From contig JBEKZX010000017.1 in assembly GCA_049509455.1 (NCBI GenBank), positions 1-28,701 of the forward strand: a stretch of 28,701 bases of DNA, read 5' to 3'. The notes beneath the pieces were generated by a model, which saw nothing but the letters and a program-made list of their open reading frames with translations, was not told where the DNA came from and searched no databases. The DNA is from Conexivisphaerales archaeon (GTDB taxonomy: Archaea; Thermoproteota; Nitrososphaeria; Conexivisphaerales; DTJL01). Positions within the stretch are counted from its first letter, which is position 1. Each line of letters starts with the position of its first letter. The translations under genes were made by a program, and so were the position numbers. Shown here in pieces: positions 6,466-19,045 of this stretch.

Positions 6466-8400
6466 GTGGAGCCCGAGGGCGAGCGGTCCTTGGCGGCGGT
6501 GATGTTCGTGGACATGGTGGGCTACACCGCAGTGAGTCAGAGGAGCGAAGCGCTGGCCCTGGAACTGGTGGACAAGCTCGCCCAGATCCTCAGGCCCATC
6601 GTTAACAAGCACTCGGGCAGGGAGATCAAGACCATGGGGGACGCATTCCTGATCGAGTTCCCCAGCGCATTCTCTGCCATCGAATGCGCCGCCTCGATGC
6701 AGAAGGCGATGGACGCCTACAACGGGGAGGCCGACCCTGACAGGGTCGTTCGCATCCGCATAGGCATCCACGTCGGGGATGTGATTCACAGAGGGAATGA
6801 CGTCCTGGGCGACGCAGTAAACATCGCCTCCAGGATTCAGCGGCTGGCGGAGCCGGGAGGCATCTGCGTGTCGGGCCAGGTCTACGATCAGGTGAGTGGG
6901 AAGGTCGGCTACGGCTTCATCAAGCTTCCCCCCACTCCTCTGAAGAACGTCAGCTCGCCTGTCTCCTTGTATCGGGTGGACCTGGGGGACGGTCGCGGGC
7001 CCAATCTGCCGACCCACGAGACGCTAGACAAGAAAAGGATCGCCGTCCTCCCGTTCGCAAACTACAGCCTGGACAGCAAGGACGAATACCTGGCCGACGG
7101 CATCACCGAGGAGCTCATCAGCAAGCTCAGCGAGGTGCGGGGGCTCAGGGTCATCGCCAGGACGTCCGTCGCGAGGTACAAGGGGTCCAACAAGAGCGTT
7201 TCCGAGATAGCGGCCGAGCTGAAGGCGGGGAGCATCCTCGAAGGAAGCTTCAGAAAGATTGGAGACAGGATCAGGGTATCGGTCCAGCTCATCGACGCCG
7301 AAACCGAAGAGCACCTTTGGGTCTCAACCTACGACAGGAACGTCGACGACATCTTCGCCGTACAGTCCAGCATCGCCAGCAACGTGGCTGATGCTCTAAA
7401 GGCGAGGCTGCTTACGGGGACTGGGCCCTCCGCCCCGCGCGAGGAGAACCTGGAGGCTTACTCCCTCTGTTTGAAGGCACGCCTCCTGTGGAACAAGAGG
7501 AGCCAGGACGGAGTGAAAGAGGCGCTTAGGCTCTTCCAGGAGGCGGCGAAGCTGGATCCTGAGTACGCTAGGGCCTATTCGGGCCTCGCCGACGCCTACT
7601 ACATCGCGTTCGACTGGGGGTACATGAAGAGGGAGGAAGCCTTGCCGAAGGCGAAGGAGGCCGCCATGAAGGCTCTCCAGCTGGACCCCGCGAACCCTGA
7701 AGCGCACGCTTCACTCGGCCTGATCCTCAGCAACGAGGCCGACCCAGCCCGGGCCGAGGAAGAGTTCCTCACCGCGATAAGGCTCAACCCGAACTACGCC
7801 TCCGCCCACCAGTGGTACACCGCCGTCCTCCTTGAGGAGGGAAGGCTTGACGAAGCGGAGGTCGAGGCGATGAAGGCGTACGACCTGGACCCCTTCTCCC
7901 CCCCGATCGCGTCCCAAGCCTCGAATCTGAAATTGATCCGCCATCGCTTCGGTGAGGCGGCCTCCATTCTTGACAGGTTGATTCAGATCGAACCCGCCTT
8001 CAAGGAGGCGTACCTCTACAGGTGCTTCGTGCACGCCCAGGCCGGAGACCGTGAGAAGGCCTTCGGGGACGTGGACAACTTCCGAAAATTCGGGGGCAGG
8101 GAAGAGCTCCACGACATGGCTGTTGCAGAGCTCTTCGCCTATTTTGGGGATGTTGAAAGGGCCCGCGAAGTGGCCCGGGAGCTCTTTGCGAAGCCCTGCG
8201 CCCAGGCGCTAGAGCCGCAGCATAAGGCCGAGCTCTACGCCGCTCTGGGCGAAGTCGAGGAGTTCTTCAGATGGGTGAAGGTCGCGCTGGACAGAGATTC
8301 CCGCCTGATAGCCTCCCTGCGTTATGACCCCGCCTACGAGGTCGTCAGGAAGGATCCGCGGTTCGCCGGGCTCTTCTACGGGCTTGGGCTGAAGCCGTAG
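6466..8400 (+). CDS. Class III adenylyl cyclase with TolB-like domain and TPR repeats
   Basis: Cyclase homology domain: MFVDMVGY, EIKTMGDAF, RIGIHVGDV, NDVLGDAVNIASRIQ. Then IAVLPFANYS...YLADGITEELI (TolB-like) and TPR helices (LDPEYARAYSGLA, LDPANPEAHASLG, LNPNYASAHQWY). The track starts it at GTG 6451. Confidence 0.92.
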   Translation: MEPEGERSLAAVMFVDMVGYTAVSQRSEALALELVDKLAQILRPIVNKHSGREIKTMGDAFLIEFPSAFSAIECAASMQKAMDAYNGEADPDRVVRIRIGIHVGDVIHRGNDVLGDAVNIASRIQRLAEPGGICVSGQVYDQVSGKVGYGFIKLPPTPLKNVSSPVSLYRVDLGDGRGPNLPTHETLDKKRIAVLPFANYSLDSKDEYLADGITEELISKLSEVRGLRVIARTSVARYKGSNKSVSEIAAELKAGSILEGSFRKIGDRIRVSVQLIDAETEEHLWVSTYDRNVDDIFAVQSSIASNVADALKARLLTGTGPSAPREENLEAYSLCLKARLLWNKRSQDGVKEALRLFQEAAKLDPEYARAYSGLADAYYIAFDWGYMKREEALPKAKEAAMKALQLDPANPEAHASLGLILSNEADPARAEEEFLTAIRLNPNYASAHQWYTAVLLEEGRLDEAEVEAMKAYDLDPFSPPIASQASNLKLIRHRFGEAASILDRLIQIEPAFKEAYLYRCFVHAQAGDREKAFGDVDNFRKFGGREELHDMAVAELFAYFGDVERAREVARELFAKPCAQALEPQHKAELYAALGEVEEFFRWVKVALDRDSRLIASLRYDPAYEVVRKDPRFAGLFYGLGLKP

Positions 8401-8453
8401 GACGAAAAGGGTCCATATCGTCGCCGGTGGCTCCGGCGGTCGTCTCGGTCCTT

Positions 8454-9587
8454 TCATGAGCTGCGAATCGCGAAGGTCACAGCGAAGACCACGGCCAGGC
8501 CCAGGCCCAGGAGCAGCATCACGGTGGCGAAGAGGCCTAGTGCAAGGCCCGCAGGACCCCGGGGATTCATAGCGAGGAGCACGTAGGCCCATGAAATGAT
8601 CCCGGTTAGACAGGAGGCGAAGCCGAGGAGTCCGATGGGGAACCGTGCCCTCCGTCCTCCCTCTTCGCGTTGCACCACCTCTGTCGAGTTGACCTCCGAA
8701 GTTATGGCTGGACCTTCGACAATATCCATCCCCCGGGCGAAGGCCTCCGGCTCGAGCACCGCTTCTTGGGGAGCCTCAGAGAGCGCGGCCCTCTTCTGGG
8801 CCCGCATCAGCTCGAATATCGCAAGGAGCAGGTCAATGGCCAGCACGACGGCCAGTCCCCCGTAGGAGAGGTATCCCAGGGAAGAGTTCGGCTGGACGGC
8901 GCTGAGCGAAACGAAGATGTTCCATGCGGCATGAATGGCGCACGTCACATACACGCTCCGGGTGATCAGGAAGACGGGGGCATACACCAGGCCGAAAAGC
9001 ACGAGGATGGCCACAGAGGACGGGCTCTGGAACTGCTGCGCCCCCAAGTGAAAGGCGCCGAAGAGGAGGGCCGAAACGACGGTGGCGTACACCATCCCCA
9101 GCCCCGCCAGCCTTCGGGCCATGTACCCTCTGAAGAAGACTTCTTCGCAGAAGGGGGCCACGACGACGGCGAACATGATGGTGGGCGCGATACCGGACCC
9201 CCAAAGCAAGGGGATCAGGAAAAGAGGGAGAAGGGTGAGTAAGACGAATACGTACCAAGGAAGGGACGTGGCGCCGTAGAGGCCCAGGTCCGATATGGAA
9301 TCCTCCCCCCTGAGCCTGGCGGAAAGCAGCGGCATCCCCAACAGCAAGCCAAGGTAGACCGCCAGGGCGGCCGAAACGAAATGGAATCGTGGAGAGTTCA
9401 CCAAGACCACGCCGGCCAGGGCCACGCCGAAGGCCAGGGCCAGCTCGAGGGCGTCGGCGAAGGCTGGCTTCGACGTCCCGGGAGGGGGGCGCCTGGTCGC
9501 AATCGACGCCGCCTTCTCAGCTTCCCCCGGCACGGCGGGAGAAGCTGCGATGTCCGACCTTGGAACCGTGTGGAAGCCCTCCGTCAT
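8454..9587 (-). CDS. CPBP (CAAX protease/Abi) family intramembrane glutamic endopeptidase with an extra C-terminal TM hairpin
   Basis: Motifs PFCEEVFFRG, SALLFGAFH and HAAWN. ATG 9587 follows a GAGGAGGGAG SD; upstream ATGs at 9608 and 9644 are alternatives. Confidence 0.88.
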   Translation of the reverse strand: MTEGFHTVPRSDIAASPAVPGEAEKAASIATRRPPPGTSKPAFADALELALAFGVALAGVVLVNSPRFHFVSAALAVYLGLLLGMPLLSARLRGEDSISDLGLYGATSLPWYVFVLLTLLPLFLIPLLWGSGIAPTIMFAVVVAPFCEEVFFRGYMARRLAGLGMVYATVVSALLFGAFHLGAQQFQSPSSVAILVLFGLVYAPVFLITRSVYVTCAIHAAWNIFVSLSAVQPNSSLGYLSYGGLAVVLAIDLLLAIFELMRAQKRAALSEAPQEAVLEPEAFARGMDIVEGPAITSEVNSTEVVQREEGGRRARFPIGLLGFASCLTGIISWAYVLLAMNPRGPAGLALGLFATVMLLLGLGLAVVFAVTFAIRSS

Positions 9588-9782
9588 GTCTCCCTCCTCC
9601 CTCGTCATAAGGTATTCGCGGCCGCCGGGGTCCCTCATCGCCACTATGAACCCCGCTCACCAGGCTGTCAGCCAGTTGCCTGATGTTCTGATGCATGGTG
9701 CTCAGGCGATCGGTGTGGGGGCAAAGGGGGAGGGCGAGCTGGAGAGGATCGGAGAAGAACTCCCTCGTCGAGGCTTTCTGCC

Positions 9783-11039
9783 CTAGTTGACGGTTTCGCC
9801 GGGGCGACCGTTCCAGTCCTTGACGGTCCTATGGGGGAAGACCTTCGTCCCGTTGAAGACGCAGCCTTCGCCGACGTCCACGTCGTCGCCGAGGACGGAG
9901 AGTCCGACGACCCATGTGGGCTTCTCTCTGCTGGACCTTATCCGCGTGTGCCTGCCGACGATGCTCTCTCGAACTTCGGCGCCTTCGCCGACGTCGACCC
10001 TATCCATCAGGGAGGAGTTCTCGATGGTCACACCGTCTCCGACGATGCAGAAGTTGTCGATGCAGGAGCTCCTGATGATCGTGCCGTCGCCGATCTGGCA
10101 GTGGCGGCCTATGAGGACGGGACCCTCCAGCTTGATCTTGCCCTCCTTCACCTTCCTGAGGATGACCCTCCTCCTCTTCTCGGACTCGGGCGAGTTGCCC
10201 TTTATCCAGACATCCTTCATGCCGAGCACGGGCTCGCCAAGGTAGAACGAAGTCCTTGGGCCGATCAGGACCTCCCCCATGGTGCTGAGGTACCCCCGAG
10301 GCGTCCCCACGTCAAACCATTCGCCCTTCAGCATATAGCCGTAGACGGGCTGACCGCTCTCCGTCATGAACGGGATGAAGTCCAGGCCGAAGTCGAGGCG
10401 CTTCCTGCCGCGTATCATCTCTCCGACCCGCGGATCGTCGAAAATCCTGCGCACTTCGGGAGAAAGAAGGTAGATGCCCGTGTTGGCTAGGTTCGACGGG
10501 GCCTCCTCCTTCTTGGGCTTCTCAACGAAACGCCTTATCCTTCCCTCCTTGGTGACGTCGGCCACGCCATAGCCTTCCACGTCCTGCACAGGCGTCAGGA
10601 CCACGGTCAGGGCGGCCTTCCTCTTTTCGTGGAATGACAGGAGGTCGGCGAGGTCGAGGTCGAAGAGGTTGTCTCCCTGCACTACTATGACCGGCGAGTC
10701 CACTTCAAAATACTCCATGTTGATGCGCACTGAGTCCGCGCTCCCGACGTCGTCGACGTTGGGCTGGTACTTGATGTGGACCCGTGGCGAGATGCCGTGT
10801 TCCGCCGAGAACCCCGTGCCGTCCTTGAAGTAGTCCATGAGCGAGACGTAGTTGACGTATCCCTTCACGCCCATGATGAAGTCCTTCACGCCCTGCTGCG
10901 CCAGCTCAGCTACGGCGAACTCCACCATGGGCTTGCAGAAGATTCGCACGACGGCCTTCGAGACCTCGGCCGTGAGGGGTTTGAGCCGCTTGGCCTCCCC
11001 GCCCACGGGTATTATGGCCCTGAGATCAGAAGGGTTCAA
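9783..11039 (-). CDS. Sugar-1-phosphate nucleotidyltransferase (NDP-sugar pyrophosphorylase) with a C-terminal left-handed beta-helix
   Basis: IPVGGEAKRLKPLT (variant of GGxGTRL), QGDN, FVEKP, NTGIY and WFDVGTP, then hexapeptide repeats (IGRHCQIGDG, VDVGEGAEV). Confidence 0.92.
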   Translation of the reverse strand: MNPSDLRAIIPVGGEAKRLKPLTAEVSKAVVRIFCKPMVEFAVAELAQQGVKDFIMGVKGYVNYVSLMDYFKDGTGFSAEHGISPRVHIKYQPNVDDVGSADSVRINMEYFEVDSPVIVVQGDNLFDLDLADLLSFHEKRKAALTVVLTPVQDVEGYGVADVTKEGRIRRFVEKPKKEEAPSNLANTGIYLLSPEVRRIFDDPRVGEMIRGRKRLDFGLDFIPFMTESGQPVYGYMLKGEWFDVGTPRGYLSTMGEVLIGPRTSFYLGEPVLGMKDVWIKGNSPESEKRRRVILRKVKEGKIKLEGPVLIGRHCQIGDGTIIRSSCIDNFCIVGDGVTIENSSLMDRVDVGEGAEVRESIVGRHTRIRSSREKPTWVVGLSVLGDDVDVGEGCVFNGTKVFPHRTVKDWNGRPGETVN

Positions 11040-11056
11040 TTCAACCCGACTAATCC

Positions 11057-11084
11057 ATATATACGCAGGAGGAGGCGTTTATCC
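11057..11084. promoter_or_regulatory. Back-to-back TATA-like boxes for the nucleotidyltransferase (-) and GH57 (+) genes
   Basis: ATATATA at 11057-11063 and TTTATC at 11078-11083 in the 69-nt divergent gap. A GGAGGGAGG SD precedes ATG 11109. Confidence 0.45.
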
Positions 11085-11108
11085 TTGTCTGAGGGAGGGA
11101 GGCACGAA

Positions 11109-12656
11109 ATGAAGAGCGTCCTGCTCATGTTCGAGGTTCACCAGCCGTTCAGGCTCAAGAGGGACTTCCTCTGGGCGAAGAGGGCCTTCAGGAAGCTCGA
11201 GAAGGGAGGGCTCCTGGAGCACTATTTTGACCTTCGAGCGGACAGGGAGATTTTCGAAAGGGCGAGCAGGAAGTGTTACGTTCCGGCCAACGCCGCCCTC
11301 CTCAAATCGATAGAGGCCCAAGAGGACGAGGGGAAGCCGGCCAAGGTATCCTTCAGCTTGTCCGGGACATTCCTAGACCAGTGCGAGCTCTACGGGAAGG
11401 AGGTGCTGGAGGGCTTCAAGCAGCTCGCCGGGACGGGAAGGGTGGAGTTCCTCGGCCAGACCTACTACCATTCATTGAGCTCTCTTTATCAGGACAAGAG
11501 CGAATTCAAAGAAGAGGTGGAGGAGCACAGCAGGGCGGTGAAGGAGCTCCTCGGGGCGTCCACTTCGACTTTTGAGAACACGGAACTCGTGTACAACAAC
11601 TCGATAGCGAAGGCCGTGGCCGGTCTCGGGTTCCGCTCCATCTGCACCGAGGGCGCAGACAGGGTGCTGGGGGAGCGCTCGCCCAACTACCTATACGATG
11701 CGCCGGAAGGCGGAGGCATCAAGGTCCTACTGAGGAATTACAGGCTGACCGACGACGTGGGGTTCAGGTTCTCCGACAGGAGGTGGAGCGAATGGCCGCT
11801 CACCGCCGAGAAGTATGCGTCCTGGCTGTCGACCGCGGAGGGAGAATGTGTGTGCATCTTTCCCGACTACGAGACCTTCGGCGAGCATCACTGGCCCGAG
11901 ACCGGGATACACGACTTCCTGGCGTACCTGCCAGGAGAGATCCTGAAGAGGCCGGACCTGAAGATGGAGCTTCCCTCCGAATTCGTCAGGGGGCATCGGT
12001 CGGCGGGGGTCCTGGACGTGCCGGAGCCGCAGACCCTGTCCTGGGCCGACATAGAGCGCGGCACGGGAAGCTGGATAGGGAACTCCATGCAGTGGGCTTA
12101 TTTCACGTCAGTGAGGGAGATGGAGCCCCTCGTGCGGGAGTCAGGTTCCCGAGAAGTGATCCGGACCTGGCGGCTCCTCGGCGTCAGCGATCATCTTTAC
12201 TATATGTTCACGGGAGGCGGAGGTCCCGGCACGGTCCATTCCTACTTTAGCCCCTACGGGTCGGCGGCGGAAGCTTTCGTCAGCGCCCAGGCGGCCGCCC
12301 TGGATTTCGAATGGAGGGTGAGGGAGCTGGTGGACGCGGCCAACGAGCCCTTTGACTTCCACAGGGAGGAGGGCGAAACCGGATACATCGGCGTCCGCGC
12401 CTGGAGCCTGGTCGGGTTCCGGGACTCCCTGACGAAGGCGCCGGCGGAGAGCCTCCTCTTCCATCAGAAAAGGGGAGACTTCGAAGCTTGGGCCATGGGG
12501 AGCCTGAAGGACGAACCCCTCGCCAAGGAACTGGCGGCGCTCAAGCTGAGGAGGCTACCGAGCGCGACGCTTCGGTCGGAGCTTGTCAGGATAGTGGCGA
12601 AACACCTGAAGGAAAGGAAACTATACCTCAAAGCCCTGGGGCTGGCGATCGAGTGA
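11109..12656 (+). CDS. GH57 alpha-amylase-type glycoside hydrolase with a C-terminal DUF5752-like domain (515 aa)
   Basis: GH57 conserved regions: EVHQP, GQTYYH, FENTEL (Glu nucleophile), PDYETFGEH (Asp acid/base) and SDHLYYM. The likely start is ATG 11109 because the track extension overlaps the opposite-strand gene. Confidence 0.95.
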   Translation: MKSVLLMFEVHQPFRLKRDFLWAKRAFRKLEKGGLLEHYFDLRADREIFERASRKCYVPANAALLKSIEAQEDEGKPAKVSFSLSGTFLDQCELYGKEVLEGFKQLAGTGRVEFLGQTYYHSLSSLYQDKSEFKEEVEEHSRAVKELLGASTSTFENTELVYNNSIAKAVAGLGFRSICTEGADRVLGERSPNYLYDAPEGGGIKVLLRNYRLTDDVGFRFSDRRWSEWPLTAEKYASWLSTAEGECVCIFPDYETFGEHHWPETGIHDFLAYLPGEILKRPDLKMELPSEFVRGHRSAGVLDVPEPQTLSWADIERGTGSWIGNSMQWAYFTSVREMEPLVRESGSREVIRTWRLLGVSDHLYYMFTGGGGPGTVHSYFSPYGSAAEAFVSAQAAALDFEWRVRELVDAANEPFDFHREEGETGYIGVRAWSLVGFRDSLTKAPAESLLFHQKRGDFEAWAMGSLKDEPLAKELAALKLRRLPSATLRSELVRIVAKHLKERKLYLKALGLAIE

Positions 12657-14611
12657 GCAGCGGGACAACTTTCGGACGAGACGTGCTGGGGGACTATGAG
12701 CTCTCCAAGTCCAAAGAGTGGCTGCTGACGAACGGGCTGGGAGGATATGCTTCGTCTACGGTCACGGGGGCCAACTCCCGGGGTTATCATGGCCTGCTGG
12801 TGGCCTCGATCCCGCCCGGCCTCACCCGCGTTCTGCTGCTTTCGAAGGTCGAGGACGAGGCGCGCACCTCAGAGGGCGCGTTCCCCTTGTCGACGAACCA
12901 CTATCCCGGCGCGGTTTATCCGCATGGCTTCATGTATCTCCAGGGGTTCGACCTCCTGCCGTGCCCGACCTGGAGGTATTCGTTCGGGGGCACGATCATC
13001 CGCAAGGCCGTCAGGATGCCCCAGGGAGTCAACGCGGTGGAGGTGTCATACTCCATCGAGGATGGGCCGGGGCCGGTGGAGCTGACGGTCAAGCCCATGG
13101 TCAACCACAGAGGATTCCATGACAGGACCAAAGAGGACAGCGGCCTTTCCTTCACCCAGGTGGTCTCGGGCGCCAGCGTCAGGGTGGATTCGTCCGCTGG
13201 CTCCCCCAGCCTGTTCCTGCGATGCGATAGTGGGAGCTACGAGGAAAAGGGGGAATGGTACAGAAACATGCTCTACGACGAAGAGGAGCTTCGAGGCTAC
13301 CCCTTCAGTGAGGATCATTTCAGCCCCGGCACCTTCCGGGCGCTGCTGGAGGTCGGCAGGGGCATGGCGCTCACCGCCTCCGTCGAGCCGACCGCAGCTT
13401 TCCCTGATGAGCCCCCACAGGCGCCTGGAGTCGGCGGGTACAAGCCGAGGTTCGACGTCCCCATTTCACTGCTTGCGTTGCTCACATTGGCCTCCCGTCA
13501 GTTCGTGGTGACGCCGCCGGGCTCCGAAGATCGCACCGTCGTGGCCGGGTATCACTGGTTCGGTGAGTATGGCCGCGATGCTGCCGTCTCCCTTCCAGGG
13601 CTCCTCCTGGCGACGGGAAGGGAGGGTGACGCGAGGGCCGTGATGAAGAGATTCTTCAAGAGGCAGCGCGGGGGCCTCCTTCCCGTGCTGCTGAACGGCG
13701 AGGAGTGCTCTTGGGCGTCGGTGGACACCTCTCTCTTCTTCGTGAACGCCGTGAAGAAGTACTACGACAGCACGGGCGACGCTTCCTTCTTGAAGGAGGT
13801 CTGGGGCGGGCTGGCATCGACCATGGGGTCCTACATGAAGGGAACGGACTTCGGCATCAGGATGGCCGACGACGGCCTCATAGAGGCCAACACGGAGGAG
13901 CTCCCCCTGACTTGGATGGACGCGACCGTGGGCGGAGCCCCGGCCGTCCGCCGGCTCTCCAAGTGCATCGAAATCAACGCCCTCTGGTACAACGCCCTGA
14001 GGGCCATGGAGGCACTAGCACAGGCGGCGGGTGCCAAGGGAGGATACCTCGAGCTGGCCAAGAGGGTGAAGGAGTCGTTCAACGGCGCGTTCTGGAACGC
14101 AGAGGGAGGATACCTCTACGACTCAGTGGGGGGAGGGAAGAGGGATGGCTCGATAAGGCCCAATCAAATCTTCTCCATCAGCCTGCCCTACCCGGTGCTG
14201 GAGCGGCAGAGGTGGAACAGAGTGCTCTACGTCGTCCAGGAGCACCTGTACACTCCCTTCGGCCTGAGGAGCCTCTCCCGCGCCGACCCTGGCTATAGGG
14301 GGATCTACGCCGGAGGCCCTCCCCAGAGGGATACCGCGTATCACAACGGCACCGTGTGGTCCTGGCTCGCCGGGCCCTACATTTCAGCAGCCTGCAAGGC
14401 CAGAAGCGGCCAGCGCGACCTCCTAATTAGGAGGATGCTGGACGCTTTCCTGGGACACATAAACGACGCTGGGCTGGGAAGCGTGTCGGAGATCTTCGAC
14501 GGCGACGCCCCTCACCACCCCCGCGGCTGCATAGCCCAGGCTTGGAGCGTGGCCGAGCTGCTGAGGTCCTACGAGGAAGACTTAAGGAAGGCTCGGGCCC
14601 CCGTTCAGTAG
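12653..14611 (+). CDS. Amylo-alpha-1,6-glucosidase / archaeal-type glycogen debranching enzyme (GDE_N + GDE_C)
   Basis: EWLLTNGLGGYAS, AGYHWF..YGRD, TWMDA, EINALWYNAL, RPNQI, YHNGTVW and EIFDG...GCIAQAWSVAE. The GTG 12653 start overlaps the GH57 stop (GTGA). Confidence 0.95.
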   Translation: MSSGTTFGRDVLGDYELSKSKEWLLTNGLGGYASSTVTGANSRGYHGLLVASIPPGLTRVLLLSKVEDEARTSEGAFPLSTNHYPGAVYPHGFMYLQGFDLLPCPTWRYSFGGTIIRKAVRMPQGVNAVEVSYSIEDGPGPVELTVKPMVNHRGFHDRTKEDSGLSFTQVVSGASVRVDSSAGSPSLFLRCDSGSYEEKGEWYRNMLYDEEELRGYPFSEDHFSPGTFRALLEVGRGMALTASVEPTAAFPDEPPQAPGVGGYKPRFDVPISLLALLTLASRQFVVTPPGSEDRTVVAGYHWFGEYGRDAAVSLPGLLLATGREGDARAVMKRFFKRQRGGLLPVLLNGEECSWASVDTSLFFVNAVKKYYDSTGDASFLKEVWGGLASTMGSYMKGTDFGIRMADDGLIEANTEELPLTWMDATVGGAPAVRRLSKCIEINALWYNALRAMEALAQAAGAKGGYLELAKRVKESFNGAFWNAEGGYLYDSVGGGKRDGSIRPNQIFSISLPYPVLERQRWNRVLYVVQEHLYTPFGLRSLSRADPGYRGIYAGGPPQRDTAYHNGTVWSWLAGPYISAACKARSGQRDLLIRRMLDAFLGHINDAGLGSVSEIFDGDAPHHPRGCIAQAWSVAELLRSYEEDLRKARAPVQ

Positions 14612-14615
14612 AACT

Positions 14616-15656
14616 TTGAAATCAACCATTAGGTTCGAGAAGGAGGTATCCGAAGTGAGGCTGCTAGACCCCTCGAAAGGTTTCAACGAGAGCGTCCAGA
14701 GCATTGAGCGGCGCAGGGACAGCCTACTGGAAAGGTGGTGCAGGATCAACGTCCAGAGGGCATCTAGGCCCACGGACGTGACCAAGGACTCGTCCCTGGC
14801 GGAGCTGGCGAAGTCGACGGAGAAGGGCTGCCTCTTCTGCCCGGAAAACATCGAAAGGACCACGCCGAAGTTCCCGCCCTTCCTTGTGCCTGAGGGGAGG
14901 ATCAAAGTTGGCGGCTCCACCGTCTTCCCTAACCTCTTCCCGTTCGCCCGGCTGCACGCTGTAGTGACCCTGACGGAGAAGCACTTCGTGCCCCTGGAGG
15001 AGATGGAGGCCGAGATCATCGGAGACGGGCTGCGCGCCTCATTGGAGCTGGCGAAGGTCCTGAACACAAAGGACCCCCAGTCGAAGTACGTCTCGGTCAA
15101 CTGGAACTGCCTCCCCACCGCGGCGGCCTCTCTGATGCATCCGCACTTCCAGGTGGTGGCCGACAGCAGGCCGACGAAATACGTCGCGGAGGCCGTCTCC
15201 GCAAGCGAATCATACCTGAGGAGGAACGGCAGCAGCTACTGGTCGGACCTCATCGAGTCGGAGGAGGGCGGAGAGAGGTTCGTCGCCAGAGAGGGGTGCT
15301 TTGCCTGGGTGGCCAGCTTCGCCCCGATGGGGAACAACGAAGTCGTGGGCATCGCGAACGGGACGTCCCAGCTGCTGGGGCTCCACGAAGGCGAGGTGAA
15401 CGACTTGGCGAAGGGGCTATCGAAGATCCTCAAGGCCTACAGCCGCCTAGGTCTTCAGGGGCTCAACATGGCGGTGTACTCGGAGCCGCTGGCCCAGGAG
15501 ACGAAGAGGTTCTCGCTCCACGCCCGTCTGATATCCAGGCCGAAGTTGAAGCTGCTCTACACCTCCGACGCCGGGTTCATGGAGAGGCTCCACGACGAGG
15601 TCATCGTAGAGACCATGCCCGAGGCCGTGGCGGCCGAGCTAAGGGCCCCCTACTAG
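14616..15656 (+). CDS. GalT-like HIT-superfamily hexose-1-phosphate nucleotidyltransferase
   Basis: RASRP, Zn-binding CLFC, FPNLFPF and catalytic SLMHPHFQ (HxHxQ). Confidence 0.88.
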   Translation: MKSTIRFEKEVSEVRLLDPSKGFNESVQSIERRRDSLLERWCRINVQRASRPTDVTKDSSLAELAKSTEKGCLFCPENIERTTPKFPPFLVPEGRIKVGGSTVFPNLFPFARLHAVVTLTEKHFVPLEEMEAEIIGDGLRASLELAKVLNTKDPQSKYVSVNWNCLPTAAASLMHPHFQVVADSRPTKYVAEAVSASESYLRRNGSSYWSDLIESEEGGERFVAREGCFAWVASFAPMGNNEVVGIANGTSQLLGLHEGEVNDLAKGLSKILKAYSRLGLQGLNMAVYSEPLAQETKRFSLHARLISRPKLKLLYTSDAGFMERLHDEVIVETMPEAVAAELRAPY

Positions 15657-16894
15657 CGAATGGCCTTCTTGTAGACCTTCAGCGTCTCGGAGGCGGCCCT
15701 GTCCCAAGTGAAGTACTGTTCCACCCTGCGCCTCCCGTTGGCGCCCCAGGCCTTCGCCTGATCGGGGTCGCGAAGCGCCTCGTCGATGCCCCAGGCGATG
15801 TCGGCGGGGTCGGAGCCGTTGACGTGCATCCCGCACCTTTCGGGGCCGTGCGGTACCACCTGCTCCACAAAGCCAACCACCCCCCTTGCGCCGGCGACGA
15901 CGGGCTTGGACATCGCCATGGCTTCGAGGGTGACGATCCCGAATGGCTCGTAGGTGGAGGGGAAGACGCACAAATCCGAGGCCGCATAGTGGAGTATCCT
16001 CTGCTCTTCGGGGACGAACTCCAGCCGGAGCTTCACCGACCCAGAAAGGCCGAGGCCATCGACGAGGGCCATCACTTCCCTCTCGAGCTCGCCGCTGGCG
16101 AGGACCACCAGCTTCGTCTTGGGCTGGCGCTTAACGACGTCGGGCATTGCTTGTATTAGCGAAAGGATGCCCTTGACGGGGGAGAGCCTCCCGACGAAGA
16201 GGAGCATCTTCTCGTCGGGGGCGATGCCGTAGCTGCTGCGCAGGGCCGCGACGTCTTCACGCTTGACCTTGGCTGGGTCGTATCTTGAGGGGTCCACGCC
16301 GTTCCATACGACGTCGATCTTCCCTTTCGGCCATGCGTGGCGGACAAGGTCCTCTTTCATCAAGTTGCTAACCGTGATTATGCGGTCGGCGCTCTCGGCG
16401 GCCGCCTCCTCTATTCTCGAAACGGCGTCGGAGCCCTGGCCGTTGGTCCTCCCCCACTCGGTGGAGTGGACGTGGAAGACGGCGGGTAGCTTAGCGTCGT
16501 GCTGCACCGTGATCCCCGCCAAGGCGCTGAGCCAGTCGTGGTAGCAGACCATGTCGAATCTTCTCTCCTCCTTTTCGACCAATTCGTTGAGGAACTTCGC
16601 GGCCGAAAGCGTATTGTAGACCTCGATGTCAGAGAAGAACCTCAGGCCGGAGCCCCAGCGGTTAAGGCCGTCCGACGCGATGAGGGAGAGCCCCTTGGTC
16701 ATGTCCATTATCAGGGGCCTGTGGACTTCGACGCCCTCCATGACTTCCCGAGTGGGAAGACCTCCCCTATTGAGGGTGAAGACGGACACGTCATAGCCCA
16801 GCTTGACCAGCCTGGGGGCCATGTTCTGGGCGTAGGTGCCGAGCCCTCCGACGAGCGAGGGAGGGTACTCCCATACAAAGAAGCCTATTCTCAT
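15653..16894 (-). CDS. GT4 (GT-B) glycosyltransferase, Rv3032/glycogen-synthase-like, paralogue 1 (413 aa)
   Basis: MRIGFFVWEYPPSLVGGLG, HDW, HSTEWGR, VWNGVD, FVGRLSPVKG, YEPFGIVTLEAMA and the terminal helix WDRAASETLKVY. Start reassigned to ATG 16894. Confidence 0.95.
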   Translation of the reverse strand: MRIGFFVWEYPPSLVGGLGTYAQNMAPRLVKLGYDVSVFTLNRGGLPTREVMEGVEVHRPLIMDMTKGLSLIASDGLNRWGSGLRFFSDIEVYNTLSAAKFLNELVEKEERRFDMVCYHDWLSALAGITVQHDAKLPAVFHVHSTEWGRTNGQGSDAVSRIEEAAAESADRIITVSNLMKEDLVRHAWPKGKIDVVWNGVDPSRYDPAKVKREDVAALRSSYGIAPDEKMLLFVGRLSPVKGILSLIQAMPDVVKRQPKTKLVVLASGELEREVMALVDGLGLSGSVKLRLEFVPEEQRILHYAASDLCVFPSTYEPFGIVTLEAMAMSKPVVAGARGVVGFVEQVVPHGPERCGMHVNGSDPADIAWGIDEALRDPDQAKAWGANGRRRVEQYFTWDRAASETLKVYKKAIR

Positions 16895-16914
16895 CCAATC
16901 ACCTTGAATCTCCA

Positions 16915-18153
16915 CTAACTGCCGCGGGCCCCCTGAGCCGTCGACGAAGGTTTCCAGGAGCCTGCGTCGTACTCCTTCAAAGTCCGCCCGTATATAGATG
17001 TGGTCAGAGATGCTATGTTGGACCAACTGTAGACGGAGATCCTCTTCGAAGCCTTAGTGCGGAGGGAGTCGGCGTAGGACGGCGAGGAGAGGACGGCCAC
17101 AATGCCGTCGGCGAGGGAGGCCGGGTTGGGCTGGACGAACTGGGCAGTCTCGCCGTTCTGAACTATCTCGCTCAGGCCTCCGGAGCCTATCGTGACGATT
17201 GGCGCCCCTGCGGCCATAGCCTCCAGGGCGACGATGCCGAAGGGCTCATAGAGGGAGGGGATTGCGTTCACGTCGGCGACGCGGAAGAGGCCCCTAAGCT
17301 GCTCCGAGTCGAGGAAGCCGGTCACGTAGACGCTGTCGGAGACGCCGAGCTCCTTGGCCCTGTTGATGAGGTTCTCCTTCAGGTAGCCTTCACCAACGAA
17401 GACGAATTTGGCCGGGGCGCGACGGAGGACGGACGGGACCGCCTCCATCAGGAGGCTCACGCCCTTCTCGTGCACCAGCCTCCCCACGTAGAGGACCAGC
17501 CTTTCGTCGGGCCGGGCGAACGTCGCCCTCAACGCGGCGGTATCGAGAGGCCCACGGAAGGGAGCGGGGTCTATCCCGTTCGGGACGACGTCGATCTTCT
17601 CGCGGCGCACGCCGAGCGCCTCCGTGACCTCTTTCACCATGAAGTTGCTGCAGCAGACGATCCTCCACGATTCACTGGTGAGCCAGGACTCTTCGGAGCT
17701 TATCATCCTCTGGTAGTCGTCGTAGATACCGCCTCTCCGGCCTTTCTCAGTAGAGTGTATCGTGGAGACGAGCGGGAGGCGGAACATGTGCTTGAGCCCT
17801 ATGGCGGCGTTGGCCACCAGCCAGTCGTGGGCATGTATCACCCTGATCCTGCCGTTCGAGGAGCGGATGATCTCGGCCGCGCGCTTCTGCATGTTGACGT
17901 TCATCATGGAGATCCAGGTGGCGAAGTTCGGGGTGGGATAGCTGTAGGAGTCCACGCGGTCCACCAAGACGCCGCGATCCGATTCATGGGCCGGGGCGCC
18001 GGGGAAGTCGCAGGTGACGACATGGACCTTAACGCCCAGCCGCGACAGCTCCCTAGAGAGGTTGTAAACGTGAGGGGCAATCCCCCCGACGGTCCTGGGC
18101 GGGTACTCCCACGACAACATGGTGACCTCGTATCCTGGCAAACCCTTAGGCAC
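16915..18153 (-). CDS. GT4 (GT-B) glycosyltransferase, Rv3032/glycogen-synthase-like, paralogue 2
   Basis: LSWEYPPRTVGGIA, HAHDW, HSTEKGR, VPNGID, YVGRLVHEKG and YEPFGIVALEAMA. Confidence 0.95.
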   Translation of the reverse strand: MPKGLPGYEVTMLSWEYPPRTVGGIAPHVYNLSRELSRLGVKVHVVTCDFPGAPAHESDRGVLVDRVDSYSYPTPNFATWISMMNVNMQKRAAEIIRSSNGRIRVIHAHDWLVANAAIGLKHMFRLPLVSTIHSTEKGRRGGIYDDYQRMISSEESWLTSESWRIVCCSNFMVKEVTEALGVRREKIDVVPNGIDPAPFRGPLDTAALRATFARPDERLVLYVGRLVHEKGVSLLMEAVPSVLRRAPAKFVFVGEGYLKENLINRAKELGVSDSVYVTGFLDSEQLRGLFRVADVNAIPSLYEPFGIVALEAMAAGAPIVTIGSGGLSEIVQNGETAQFVQPNPASLADGIVAVLSSPSYADSLRTKASKRISVYSWSNIASLTTSIYGRTLKEYDAGSWKPSSTAQGARGS

Positions 18154-18784
18154 CCCTCTGAAGGTCTCTGGCCTCCCGGTATGCCCTCAGCGTGTCGTCG
18201 ACCCACGAGGGCGAGGAAGGGTCCACCACCCTCACCTTCGAGGGCGGTACGTTGTGAAGCGCCTCGACCTGGGACTTTAGGGTAGCCGAGGCGGTGATCG
18301 CGACCGCCGATTCGAAGAGCCCGAGCCATTCGAGCCCCCTGACGCAGGAGCTGAGGGGAGATGACGGTTCGCGCGACCTCTGTTCCTCCAGAGAGTGAAC
18401 TGTGAACACGAATGGAAGGCCCAGCGCCTTCTTGAGGCCTACGGCGGCGGATACGAAGTGCCAGTCATGGACGTCAATGACATCTATGCCACCCGAAGGA
18501 GAGTAGAAGATGTCGGCCGCGACCCTCTGGGCCTCGGAGCAGAGCGACAGGGACCAAGTCAGCACATTGAGGTGAGGGTCTACGGGGTTGTGAGTCCAAT
18601 GGAGTTGAATCTTGGGCGATACCGCCTCGGTGGCAGGGCGGGCCTCGTGGAAGGATATGACGTGCACCGTCCCCTCCCTTCCAGACACCTCATGGGCGAG
18701 CCGCTCTACGTAGTAGGCGAGCTCTCCCATGACCCTGGGCGGGTACTCCCAAGCCAGGATGGCGGTACGAAGGTGCGAAGTCAA
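18146..18784 (-). CDS. GT4 N-terminal-domain-only protein (donor-binding domain absent), paralogue 3 (212 aa)
   Basis: LAWEYPP, DVHDWH and TVHSLEEQR are present. The GRL..EKG and EPFG...E motifs are absent. It ends in WVDDTLRAYREA, matching the terminal helix of paralogue 1 (WDRAASETLKVYKKA). Confidence 0.85.
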   Translation of the reverse strand: MTSHLRTAILAWEYPPRVMGELAYYVERLAHEVSGREGTVHVISFHEARPATEAVSPKIQLHWTHNPVDPHLNVLTWSLSLCSEAQRVAADIFYSPSGGIDVIDVHDWHFVSAAVGLKKALGLPFVFTVHSLEEQRSREPSSPLSSCVRGLEWLGLFESAVAITASATLKSQVEALHNVPPSKVRVVDPSSPSWVDDTLRAYREARDLQRGA

Positions 18785-18790
18785 TTTGCA

Positions 18791-19045
18791 TCATGTGAAA
18801 AGAGATGAAACTCGAATGATCCCGTTCCCGGTGAGGAAGTATCGGGTTACGCCCCCATGGTCTACCGCGGAGCCGAGGTACCCCGCCCTGGTGTGGTCGG
18901 CGATGATCTTCTGAACGTCGACGACGGGGATGCCTGTCAGCATGGCCATCTCCTCCACGCTTTTGCCGGTCTTCCCCATTATGGCGCCGGCGTTGTGCAT
19001 AGCTAGGAGGAGCTTCTGTTGGGGCGAAATATCGGAATCGTTCAA
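18791..19045 (-). CDS. Small winged helix-turn-helix-like protein (84 aa)
   Basis: QKLLLAM...KSVEEMAMLTGIPVVDVQKIIADHTRAGYL...RYFLTGNG follows the helix-HTH-wing order with a typical Y-x-LT-x-x-G end. First gene of the GT4 operon. Confidence 0.68.
   Translation of the reverse strand: MNDSDISPQQKLLLAMHNAGAIMGKTGKSVEEMAMLTGIPVVDVQKIIADHTRAGYLGSAVDHGGVTRYFLTGNGIIRVSSLFT

Follow-up and report, generated by a model that had tools for sequence, protein, structure and literature searches.

A conserved archaeal half-glycosyltransferase and its predicted role as a non-catalytic subunit of the complete GT4 enzyme encoded next to it

Why would an archaeon keep an intact gene for one half of a glycosyltransferase? 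The question is raised by a 28,701-nucleotide (nt) stretch of DNA, hereafter the window, from a Conexivisphaerales archaeon (contig JBEKZX010000017.1 of assembly GCA_049509455.1; source genome of 2.05 Mb, 95.5% complete). Its minus strand carries an open reading frame (ORF), here called half-GT, which encodes the N-terminal domain of a glycosyltransferase of family GT4 and is followed by two complete GT4 genes, paralogue 2 and then paralogue 1. An original prediction, made from the letters of the window, described half-GT as a folded, non-catalytic acceptor-binding protein and offered three roles for it: glucan-granule scaffold, carbohydrate sensor or regulatory subunit of the two synthases. 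We found that half-GT belongs to an old and conserved archaeal family and is not a broken glycosyltransferase. Of the three roles, that of a synthase subunit is best supported, specifically as a subunit of paralogue 2, by synteny and by the controls of a complex structure prediction. The features on which the argument relies are the following, with lengths in amino acids (aa).

18146..18784, minus strand: half-GT gene; TTG start, 212 aa, ORF intact; N-terminal GT4 Rossmann domain, linker and C-terminal crossover helix, with the donor domain absent.
18737..18751, minus strand: WEYPP motif, residues 12-16 of half-GT, shared with full-length GT4 enzymes; all 30 family members compared have E13 and P16.
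18722..18730, minus strand: MGE, residues 19-21, the degenerate Gly-Gly (GG) loop.
18206..18223, minus strand: linker DPSSPS, residues 188-193, six residues which replace the entire second Rossmann domain.
18152..18205, minus strand: C-terminal helix, residues 194-211; aligns with the terminal helix of paralogue 2 (residues 369-386 of its public gene call, P0197).
16915..18153, minus strand: paralogue 2, a complete GT4 with both Rossmann domains and an EPFG...E motif; downstream neighbour and predicted partner of half-GT.
15653..16894, minus strand: paralogue 1, a second complete GT4, often but not always found near the half-GT/paralogue 2 pair.

The half protein has a clean architecture. In a Pfam search, half-GT matches only PF13439 (residues 24-187, 59.9 bits against a cut-off of 28.5), with no match to either PF00534 (Glycos_transf_1) or PF13692; paralogues 1 and 2 each carry both PF13439 and Glycos_transf_1. 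In a three-way alignment, the two paralogues run through KIDVV(W/P)NG(V/I)D into about 185 residues of donor domain. At the same place half-GT reads KVRVVD-PSSPS-W and comes back into register at the terminal helix, where W, T and Y columns are common to all three proteins. Half-GT has MGE where the paralogues have VGG, and it keeps WEYPP, HDW and HS-x-E. The domain search and the alignment therefore bear out the earlier claim that the donor domain is absent while the terminal helix is kept, and the alignment agrees with the motif assignments made for the window protein.

Residues that full-length enzymes use are lost more widely in the family than the window protein alone would indicate. A column-wise comparison set 30 half proteins against 47 full-length relatives. 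Both groups keep W12, E13, P15, P16, G20, W77, W108, S131, E133, R136, E152, K183 and Y202. The second Gly of the GG loop (position 21) is Gly in 47 of 47 full-length proteins and in none of the 30 half proteins, which have E, D, Q, N or other residues instead. The His of HDW and that of HS-x-E are each kept in 63% of half proteins, compared with 96% and 100%, respectively, of full-length proteins, so that the retention of HDW and HS-x-E noted in the original prediction holds for the window protein and fails as a statement about the family. The T and G positions after the His of HS-x-E and S166 are relaxed as well, and the half proteins no longer have the NG motif found where the two domains join. 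Compared with active GT4 enzymes of the GT-B fold, half-GT has the N-terminal Rossmann domain and lacks both the donor domain and the Gly-Gly loop for the donor phosphates. A stand-alone donor domain is also absent from its own genome, in which the frames with a PF00534 match are all 293 aa or longer. Judging from the missing domain and the lost residues, half-GT is most probably catalytically dead, in agreement with what had been proposed.

The remaining half is nonetheless predicted to fold, again as originally proposed. The AlphaFold2 model, built from the family alignment, has a predicted local distance difference test score (pLDDT) of 85.2 and a predicted template modelling score (pTM) of 0.86; it consists of a Rossmann-like domain and a final helix at residues 194-211, begins at residue 5 and has no N-terminal extension. 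Searched against the PDB with Foldseek, the model best matches the N-domains of MshA, GlgM, sucrose-phosphate synthase (SPS) and Pyrococcus glycogen synthase. Foldseek also matches 6LDQ, an engineered SPS N-domain with its terminal helix, at a template modelling (TM) score of 0.79 by target length. This SPS N-domain plus helix was crystallised and superimposed on the full enzyme, while a construct without the helix gave no crystals (PMC7264703), which supports the view that the terminal helix belongs to the fold of the N-domain.

How widespread are such proteins? A word-indexed search returned 17 short homologues of 187-214 aa with 39-75% identity and identical Pfam content. Two residues of the last helix, W194 and Y202, do not vary in an alignment of the 13 closer members; across the 30 diverse members, 97% have Y202. 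When 1.84 billion representatives were searched exhaustively with a profile, about 45 clusters (at 50% identity) emerged with lengths of 199-222 aa, and their members match the profile through positions 200-206 of the terminal helix. Full-length GT4 proteins match the same profile only over positions 1-185. The window protein fits the family in length and in matching through the W...Y helix. Members with a named source belong to Bathyarchaeota, Calditenuaceae (Aigarchaeota) and Nitrososphaerota. In the ESM Atlas, several clusters of about 200 aa are present, chiefly from Bathyarchaeota. We also sampled 401 genomes evenly across the phylum, and about 47 of them contain a short open frame of 206-257 codons whose match extends through the helix. 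The carriers are clustered in a few families; for example, 24 of the 27 genomes of one family (f20) have the gene.

The ESM Atlas also contains GT4 clusters of about 200-218 aa with only the N-domain in Methanobacteriota, Bacteroidota, Actinomycetota and Tectimicrobiota (feature scores 0.91-0.97). Half-GT4 proteins may accordingly extend beyond the archaeal family studied here.

The family appears to have arisen once. In a maximum-likelihood tree of the 30 half proteins and 47 full-length relatives, all half proteins fall on one side of a branch with a Shimodaira-Hasegawa-like approximate likelihood ratio test (SH-aLRT) value of 98, and a tree of the N-domain only (182 columns) gives this branch a value of 99. 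A single ancient loss of the donor domain therefore suffices for the family. The ratio of nonsynonymous to synonymous substitution rates (dN/dS) of half-GT is 0.19 between the window and a genome of the same genus and 0.135 in a second pair, and that of paralogue 2 in the corresponding comparisons is 0.146 and 0.080; all these figures are rough because dS is around 1 or higher. The original prediction had argued against a random truncation and had proposed a search for homologues of about 200 aa. The roughly 45 clusters with conserved length, the synteny with GT4 genes, the low dN/dS (0.14-0.19), a sign of purifying selection, and the one clade-like group all point the same way, and conserved length, dN/dS and the single-origin tree lead us to reject a truncation artefact or pseudogene.

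Close relatives raise a separate issue. For three genomes of the same genus (G001-G003), the best matches to half-GT are full-length GT4 proteins with 36-38% identity, which the tree sets apart as a 'solo' GT4 clade. Orthologues of full length in close relatives, which would speak against the original prediction, were considered and rejected: G004, of the same genus, and G007, of a sister genus, have short orthologues, and the G001-G003 proteins sit in the solo clade, outside the module formed by half-GT and paralogue 2. This module was not found with this query in G001-G003, whose genomes are 59-90% complete, so that its absence from them is unproven. In the two solo loci that were read, L004 (G002:C88) and L005 (G003:C187), the solo GT4 lies divergent beside a gene of the GH13 alpha-amylase family. 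Solo GT4 and GH13 together may represent a different, perhaps GlgM/GlgE-like, glucan route that alternates with the module within the genus.

Half-GT genes have a constant neighbour. In all 14 pairs that we read, located in 13 loci and containing half proteins 38-100% identical to that of the window, the next gene downstream is a complete GT4 (392-418 aa) in the same orientation. At the extremes the two genes overlap by 8 nt or are 26 nt apart; in six pairs they overlap or adjoin. Starting from the other side gives the same picture: paralogue-2 homologues chosen only for lying on long contigs have the half gene upstream in three of three cases. Within the genome survey, half-GT lies directly upstream of a complete GT4 of the paralogue 2 type in at least 44 of the 47 carrier genomes. 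Among the best 48 paralogue-2 matches in the 401 genomes, four have no half match directly upstream. These four are the match in G332, the long-frame copies placed divergently upstream in G216 and G183, and a G216 copy 1.7 kb downstream. Most GT4 matches with at most 47% identity to paralogue 2 have no half gene, a cut which is descriptive only because it was read off the ranked list after the fact.

The pair can also be doubled as a unit, as we found in one metagenomic contig (L024) and in two sampled genomes (G183 and G348). The copies are located at L024:4363-6185 and 8076-9908, at G183:C3 97317-99148 and 102974-104832, and at G348:C8 255570-257397 and C9 504005-505817. No fusion of a half and a full GT4 was found among the longer relatives.

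In the window itself, the spacing depends on the start codon of paralogue 2. Public gene calls use ATG 18120 (P0197, 401 aa), 33 nt inside GTG 18153 (412 aa). The half-GT ORF is intact, as first described; the 8-nt overlap described with it holds only with GTG 18153 and becomes a 25-nt gap with ATG 18120, which is likely the real start.

Complex structure prediction places the two neighbours together. Half-GT with paralogue 2 scores 0.88 (three runs, 0.87-0.88), while the best control scores 0.10. In the benchmark of this score, 58 of 80 solved complexes attained this mark, as did 2 of 110 mismatched pairs; these counts are only rough here because own family alignments were used for both chains. 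At least 87% of the contacts agree between runs, and the partner has a pLDDT of at least 87. The predicted interface brings residues 67-94, 112-122 and 142-154 of half-GT against residues 59-86, 104-114 and 135-146 of P0197, with three N-domain helices per chain arranged around a pseudo-twofold axis. On the half-GT side it is encoded by three elements.

18503..18586, minus strand: interface element 1, residues 67-94 (loop and helix 74-93); contains the family-specific R87.
18419..18451, minus strand: interface element 2, residues 112-122 (helix 108-121); contains A113, L117 and K118.
18323..18361, minus strand: interface element 3, residues 142-154 (helix 143-158); the helix carries I148, E152 and G155.

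Six positions are at least 80% conserved in half-GT proteins and less so in full-length ones: R87, A113, L117, K118, I148 and G155. All six fall within the three interface helices, which together account for about a quarter of the residues, an observation in line with the predicted contact. Among solved structures, GlgM (6TVP) is the best sequence match for both half-GT and paralogue 2. The GlgM homodimer is held by three N-domain helices per subunit, which form a six-helix bundle (PMC7137382), and the geometry predicted for half-GT and paralogue 2 equals that of this homodimer.

What the pair works on is suggested by its surroundings. The minus-strand genes belong to a cluster of alpha-glucan genes and are ordered, in the direction of transcription, as an 84-aa ORF, half-GT, paralogue 2 (401 or 412 aa) and paralogue 1. 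Two further features of the window are listed here.

9783-19045: alpha-glucan gene cluster, with genes for a sugar-phosphate nucleotidyltransferase, a GH57 enzyme, a GDE-type debranching enzyme and a GalT-like protein, and the minus-strand genes.
822-1325: TATA-binding protein (TBP) gene.

Named relatives of the window proteins come from Nitrososphaerota/'Thaumarchaeota', Conexivisphaerales and Bathyarchaeia. Several full-length GT4 relatives (P0055, P0094, P0098, P0060 and P0099) carry an N-terminal NUDIX domain, DUF4912, or GH57 with a branching-enzyme C-terminal domain, and the GH57-GT4 fusions link this GT4 group to alpha-glucan synthesis. From the gene cluster, the fusions of GH57/branching-enzyme domains to GT4 and the source annotations, we infer that paralogue 2 makes alpha-1,4-glucan. 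Half-GT and both paralogues fall below the curated NCBIfam cut-offs for glycogen and starch synthases (TIGR02095 and TIGR02149). For TIGR02149 (glgA_Coryne), half-GT scores 32.5 bits, paralogue 1 176 bits and paralogue 2 138 bits against a cut-off of 302; glgA_Coryne is the best NCBIfam match of paralogue 1.

Some gene boundaries in the cluster also deserve correction. The 457-aa ORF of paralogue 1 that reaches 17026 is probably over-extended because its homologues begin at the Met of MRIGFFVWEYPP (ATG 16894). This start abolishes an apparent 112-nt overlap with paralogue 2. Two plus-strand ORFs are probably over-extended at their 5′ ends: the GH57 domain starts at residue 117 of ORF 10776-12656, and GDE_N starts at residue 76 of ORF 12488-14611. 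The GalT-like gene (HIT-fold, weak DUF4921) is located at 14616-15656 on the plus strand of the window, with counterparts at L020:3089-4129 and L017:12154-13221, and recurs in the glucan clusters of distant genomes. This recurrence suggests that a step interconverting nucleoside diphosphate (NDP)-glucose and glucose-1-phosphate is linked to the pathway.

The 84-aa ORF adds a possible third component.

18791..19045, minus strand: 84-aa winged-helix protein, first gene of a conserved three-gene unit; its stop lies 6 nt before the half-GT start.

A gene of 83-87 aa without a Pfam family precedes half-GT in 12 of the 14 pairs, at a distance of 5-20 nt (for example L013:5387-5638, L015:8735-8989, L017:8734-8988, L019:5740-5991, L020:5455-5715, L023:4117-4368, L024:4079-4342 and L025:4130-4381). 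Its product has conserved LHN, GY and YLTGRGIIRVCSLFT-like motifs and a dN/dS of 0.15-0.17. The model is a minimal winged helix (pLDDT 86.5), with small DNA-binding proteins such as AspA and TubR, and the MarR core, as best matches. The protein could be a regulator or a third subunit. Readthrough from the small gene into half-GT was considered and rejected: the two genes share a frame in the window, where they are a TGA and two codons apart, and have different frames in L015, so the shared frame is taken as coincidence. Upstream of the second pair copy in L024, a 187-aa ORF occupies the place where the small gene is expected.

The closest known system to half-GT is plant SS5, which is an analogue and not a member of the same family. 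Arabidopsis SS5 is described as an inactive pseudo-starch synthase that has only the N-terminal subdomain and acts in granule initiation through protein contacts; one of its helices occupies the position that the C-terminal helix has in SS4 (PMC12954377, PMC10801857). The two proteins are alike in being paralogues of glucan synthases which keep only the acceptor-side GT-B subdomain, with a helix at the crossover position, and have neither the donor subdomain nor activity. SS5 differs in being a eukaryotic GT5 protein that is not operon-linked, in having a long coiled coil and a dimerisation region, and in forming homodimers and binding MRC/PII1 and not a catalytic paralogue, while half-GT is a GT4 protein that shares an operon with its catalytic paralogue. 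The best-matching families of half-GT are GT4, and its position in the tree is with archaeal GT4 enzymes. SS5 and half-GT clearly arose independently.

Other systems resemble half-GT in part. GlgM of Mycobacterium smegmatis, a GT4 alpha-maltose-1-phosphate synthase, shares the predicted bundle geometry and 21% identity in a structural alignment, but its homodimer has two complete and active subunits, whereas the half-GT pair would contain one dead half of 212 aa. The Thermosynechococcus SPS A-domain in 6LDQ (residues 27-220 and 406-426) has a GT4 N-domain fused directly to the terminal helix, as half-GT does; it is a laboratory construct without a biological role, whereas half-GT is natural and evolved. 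In streptococcal GtfB/GtfA and yeast Alg14/Alg13, an inactive protein derived from the GT-B fold is needed by a catalytic glycosyltransferase that is encoded next to it or cooperates with it. GtfB keeps both Rossmann-like domains, and Alg14 makes up one enzyme together with a bare C-half. Half-GT, in contrast, is a bare N-half paired with an enzyme that is already complete, and its partner is not the stand-alone C-terminal donor half with crossover helix that an Alg14-type system would have.

The reading that we favour, with moderate confidence, is that half-GT is a non-catalytic subunit of the paralogue 2 synthase, the contact and its geometry both being predictions. Half-GT is an acceptor-side Rossmann domain closed by its C-terminal crossover helix. 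It would be co-transcribed with the downstream paralogue 2 and probably translationally coupled to it. The two proteins would most likely form a pseudo-symmetric heterodimer through a six-helix bundle like that of GlgM-type homodimers, with one active site and one non-catalytic N-domain. The dead subunit might stabilise the synthase, or it might help initiation or processivity by offering an extra surface that holds glucan or primer, an idea modelled on plant SS5 and on the N-domain of Pyrococcus glycogen synthase, which has a non-catalytic glycogen site.

Several points weigh against a subunit role. The complex score may derive from likeness to solved GT4 homodimers (GlgM and MshA); in that case it shows that half-GT can mimic a protomer and not that it binds. 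Paralogue 2 could also form a homodimer through the same helices. Conservation is no higher at the interface than elsewhere in either protein (p = 0.24 and 0.43), in a comparison that, made without coordinates, leaves core and surface unseparated. The acceptor-side His residues of half-GT are only partly conserved. The module seems dispensable at the level of the genus, since no half gene was detected in three genomes of the same genus, which use another GT4 clade. Finally, paralogue 2 is only a presumed glucan synthase.

Half-GT may instead bind alpha-glucan or primers as a free protein (granule scaffold, primer holder or sensor), co-expressed with the synthases but in no stable complex with them, a mode of action closest to that of SS5, which works through other partners. 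The acceptor-side fold is kept together with E13, W108, E133, R136 and E152, which are invariant in active relatives, the gene lies inside a glycogen gene cluster, and SS5 shows that such a protein can be functional without catalysis (PMC12954377, PMC10801857). We think this rather unlikely given that the adjacency is specific to one GT4 clade, with overlaps and zero gaps typical of coupled subunits, that the pair is co-duplicated, and that the family-specific conservation falls on the predicted interface helices and not on the former active-site face.

The predicted interface can also be read in the opposite sense. As a dominant-negative regulator comparable to a microprotein, half-GT would occupy the dimerisation helices of paralogue 2, break or cap its homodimer and lower glucan synthesis. 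The match between the predicted interface and that of GlgM-type GT4 homodimers would fit such a regulator, as would a protein without any donor-side function. The gene organisation makes this distinctly improbable: half-GT is in the same operon as its target and upstream of it, often with overlapping stop and start, and fixed co-production would be odd for an inhibitor. Besides, nearly all paralogue-2 orthologues have a half-GT, which fits an obligate partner better than a switch.

Could half-GT instead be one piece of a split GT-B enzyme whose donor half is encoded separately? Such enzymes exist, as Alg13/Alg14 demonstrates, and half-GT keeps WEYPP, W108 and E133. In Alg13/14 the terminal helix goes with the C-half, whereas in half-GT it stays with the N-half. 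No stand-alone Glycos_transf_1 ORF exists in the source genome (95.5% complete), half-GT is conserved next to a GT4 with both domains, and the GG loop and catalytic His are degenerate. In addition, the separated domains of SPS regained no activity when mixed (PMC7264703). A split enzyme is therefore very improbable. Least credible of all, to the point of being nearly negligible, is a functionless remnant or pseudogene left by a recent in-frame deletion: half-GT does derive from a GT4 gene minus about 185 codons, but length and helix are conserved over the roughly 45 clusters and several archaeal classes, dN/dS is low, the origin on the tree is single and the fold is confidently predicted.

These results turn one odd ORF into a conserved two- or three-gene module across TACK (Thaumarchaeota, Aigarchaeota, Crenarchaeota and Korarchaeota) archaea. 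They define a widespread and unannotated protein family, whose members are labelled only 'glycosyltransferase' or 'hypothetical' in their sources and for which our literature searches found no describing paper. Half-GT proteins should be annotated neither as active glycosyltransferases nor as fragments. Their presence marks one GT4 clade as a probable two-subunit enzyme, at a time when the role of GT4 enzymes in archaeal glycogen metabolism has been said to need clarification (2024 review, PMC11046441). The family is a natural and independently evolved counterpart of SS5 and of the engineered N-domain plus helix constructs, and offers a simple and thermostable system for probing the contribution of a dead acceptor domain to a glucan synthase.

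A bolder and more tentative proposal, which we regard as possible without expecting it to be correct, is that many TACK archaea (Bathyarchaeia, Aigarchaeota and non-ammonia-oxidising Nitrososphaeria) make storage alpha-glucan by means of an obligate two-subunit GT4 synthase in which the dead half is a site that holds primer or glucan and starts or guides chains, with the winged-helix protein as regulator or third subunit. If this is true, the two-subunit synthase would be a prokaryotic counterpart of glycogenin and of the SS5 initiation factors.

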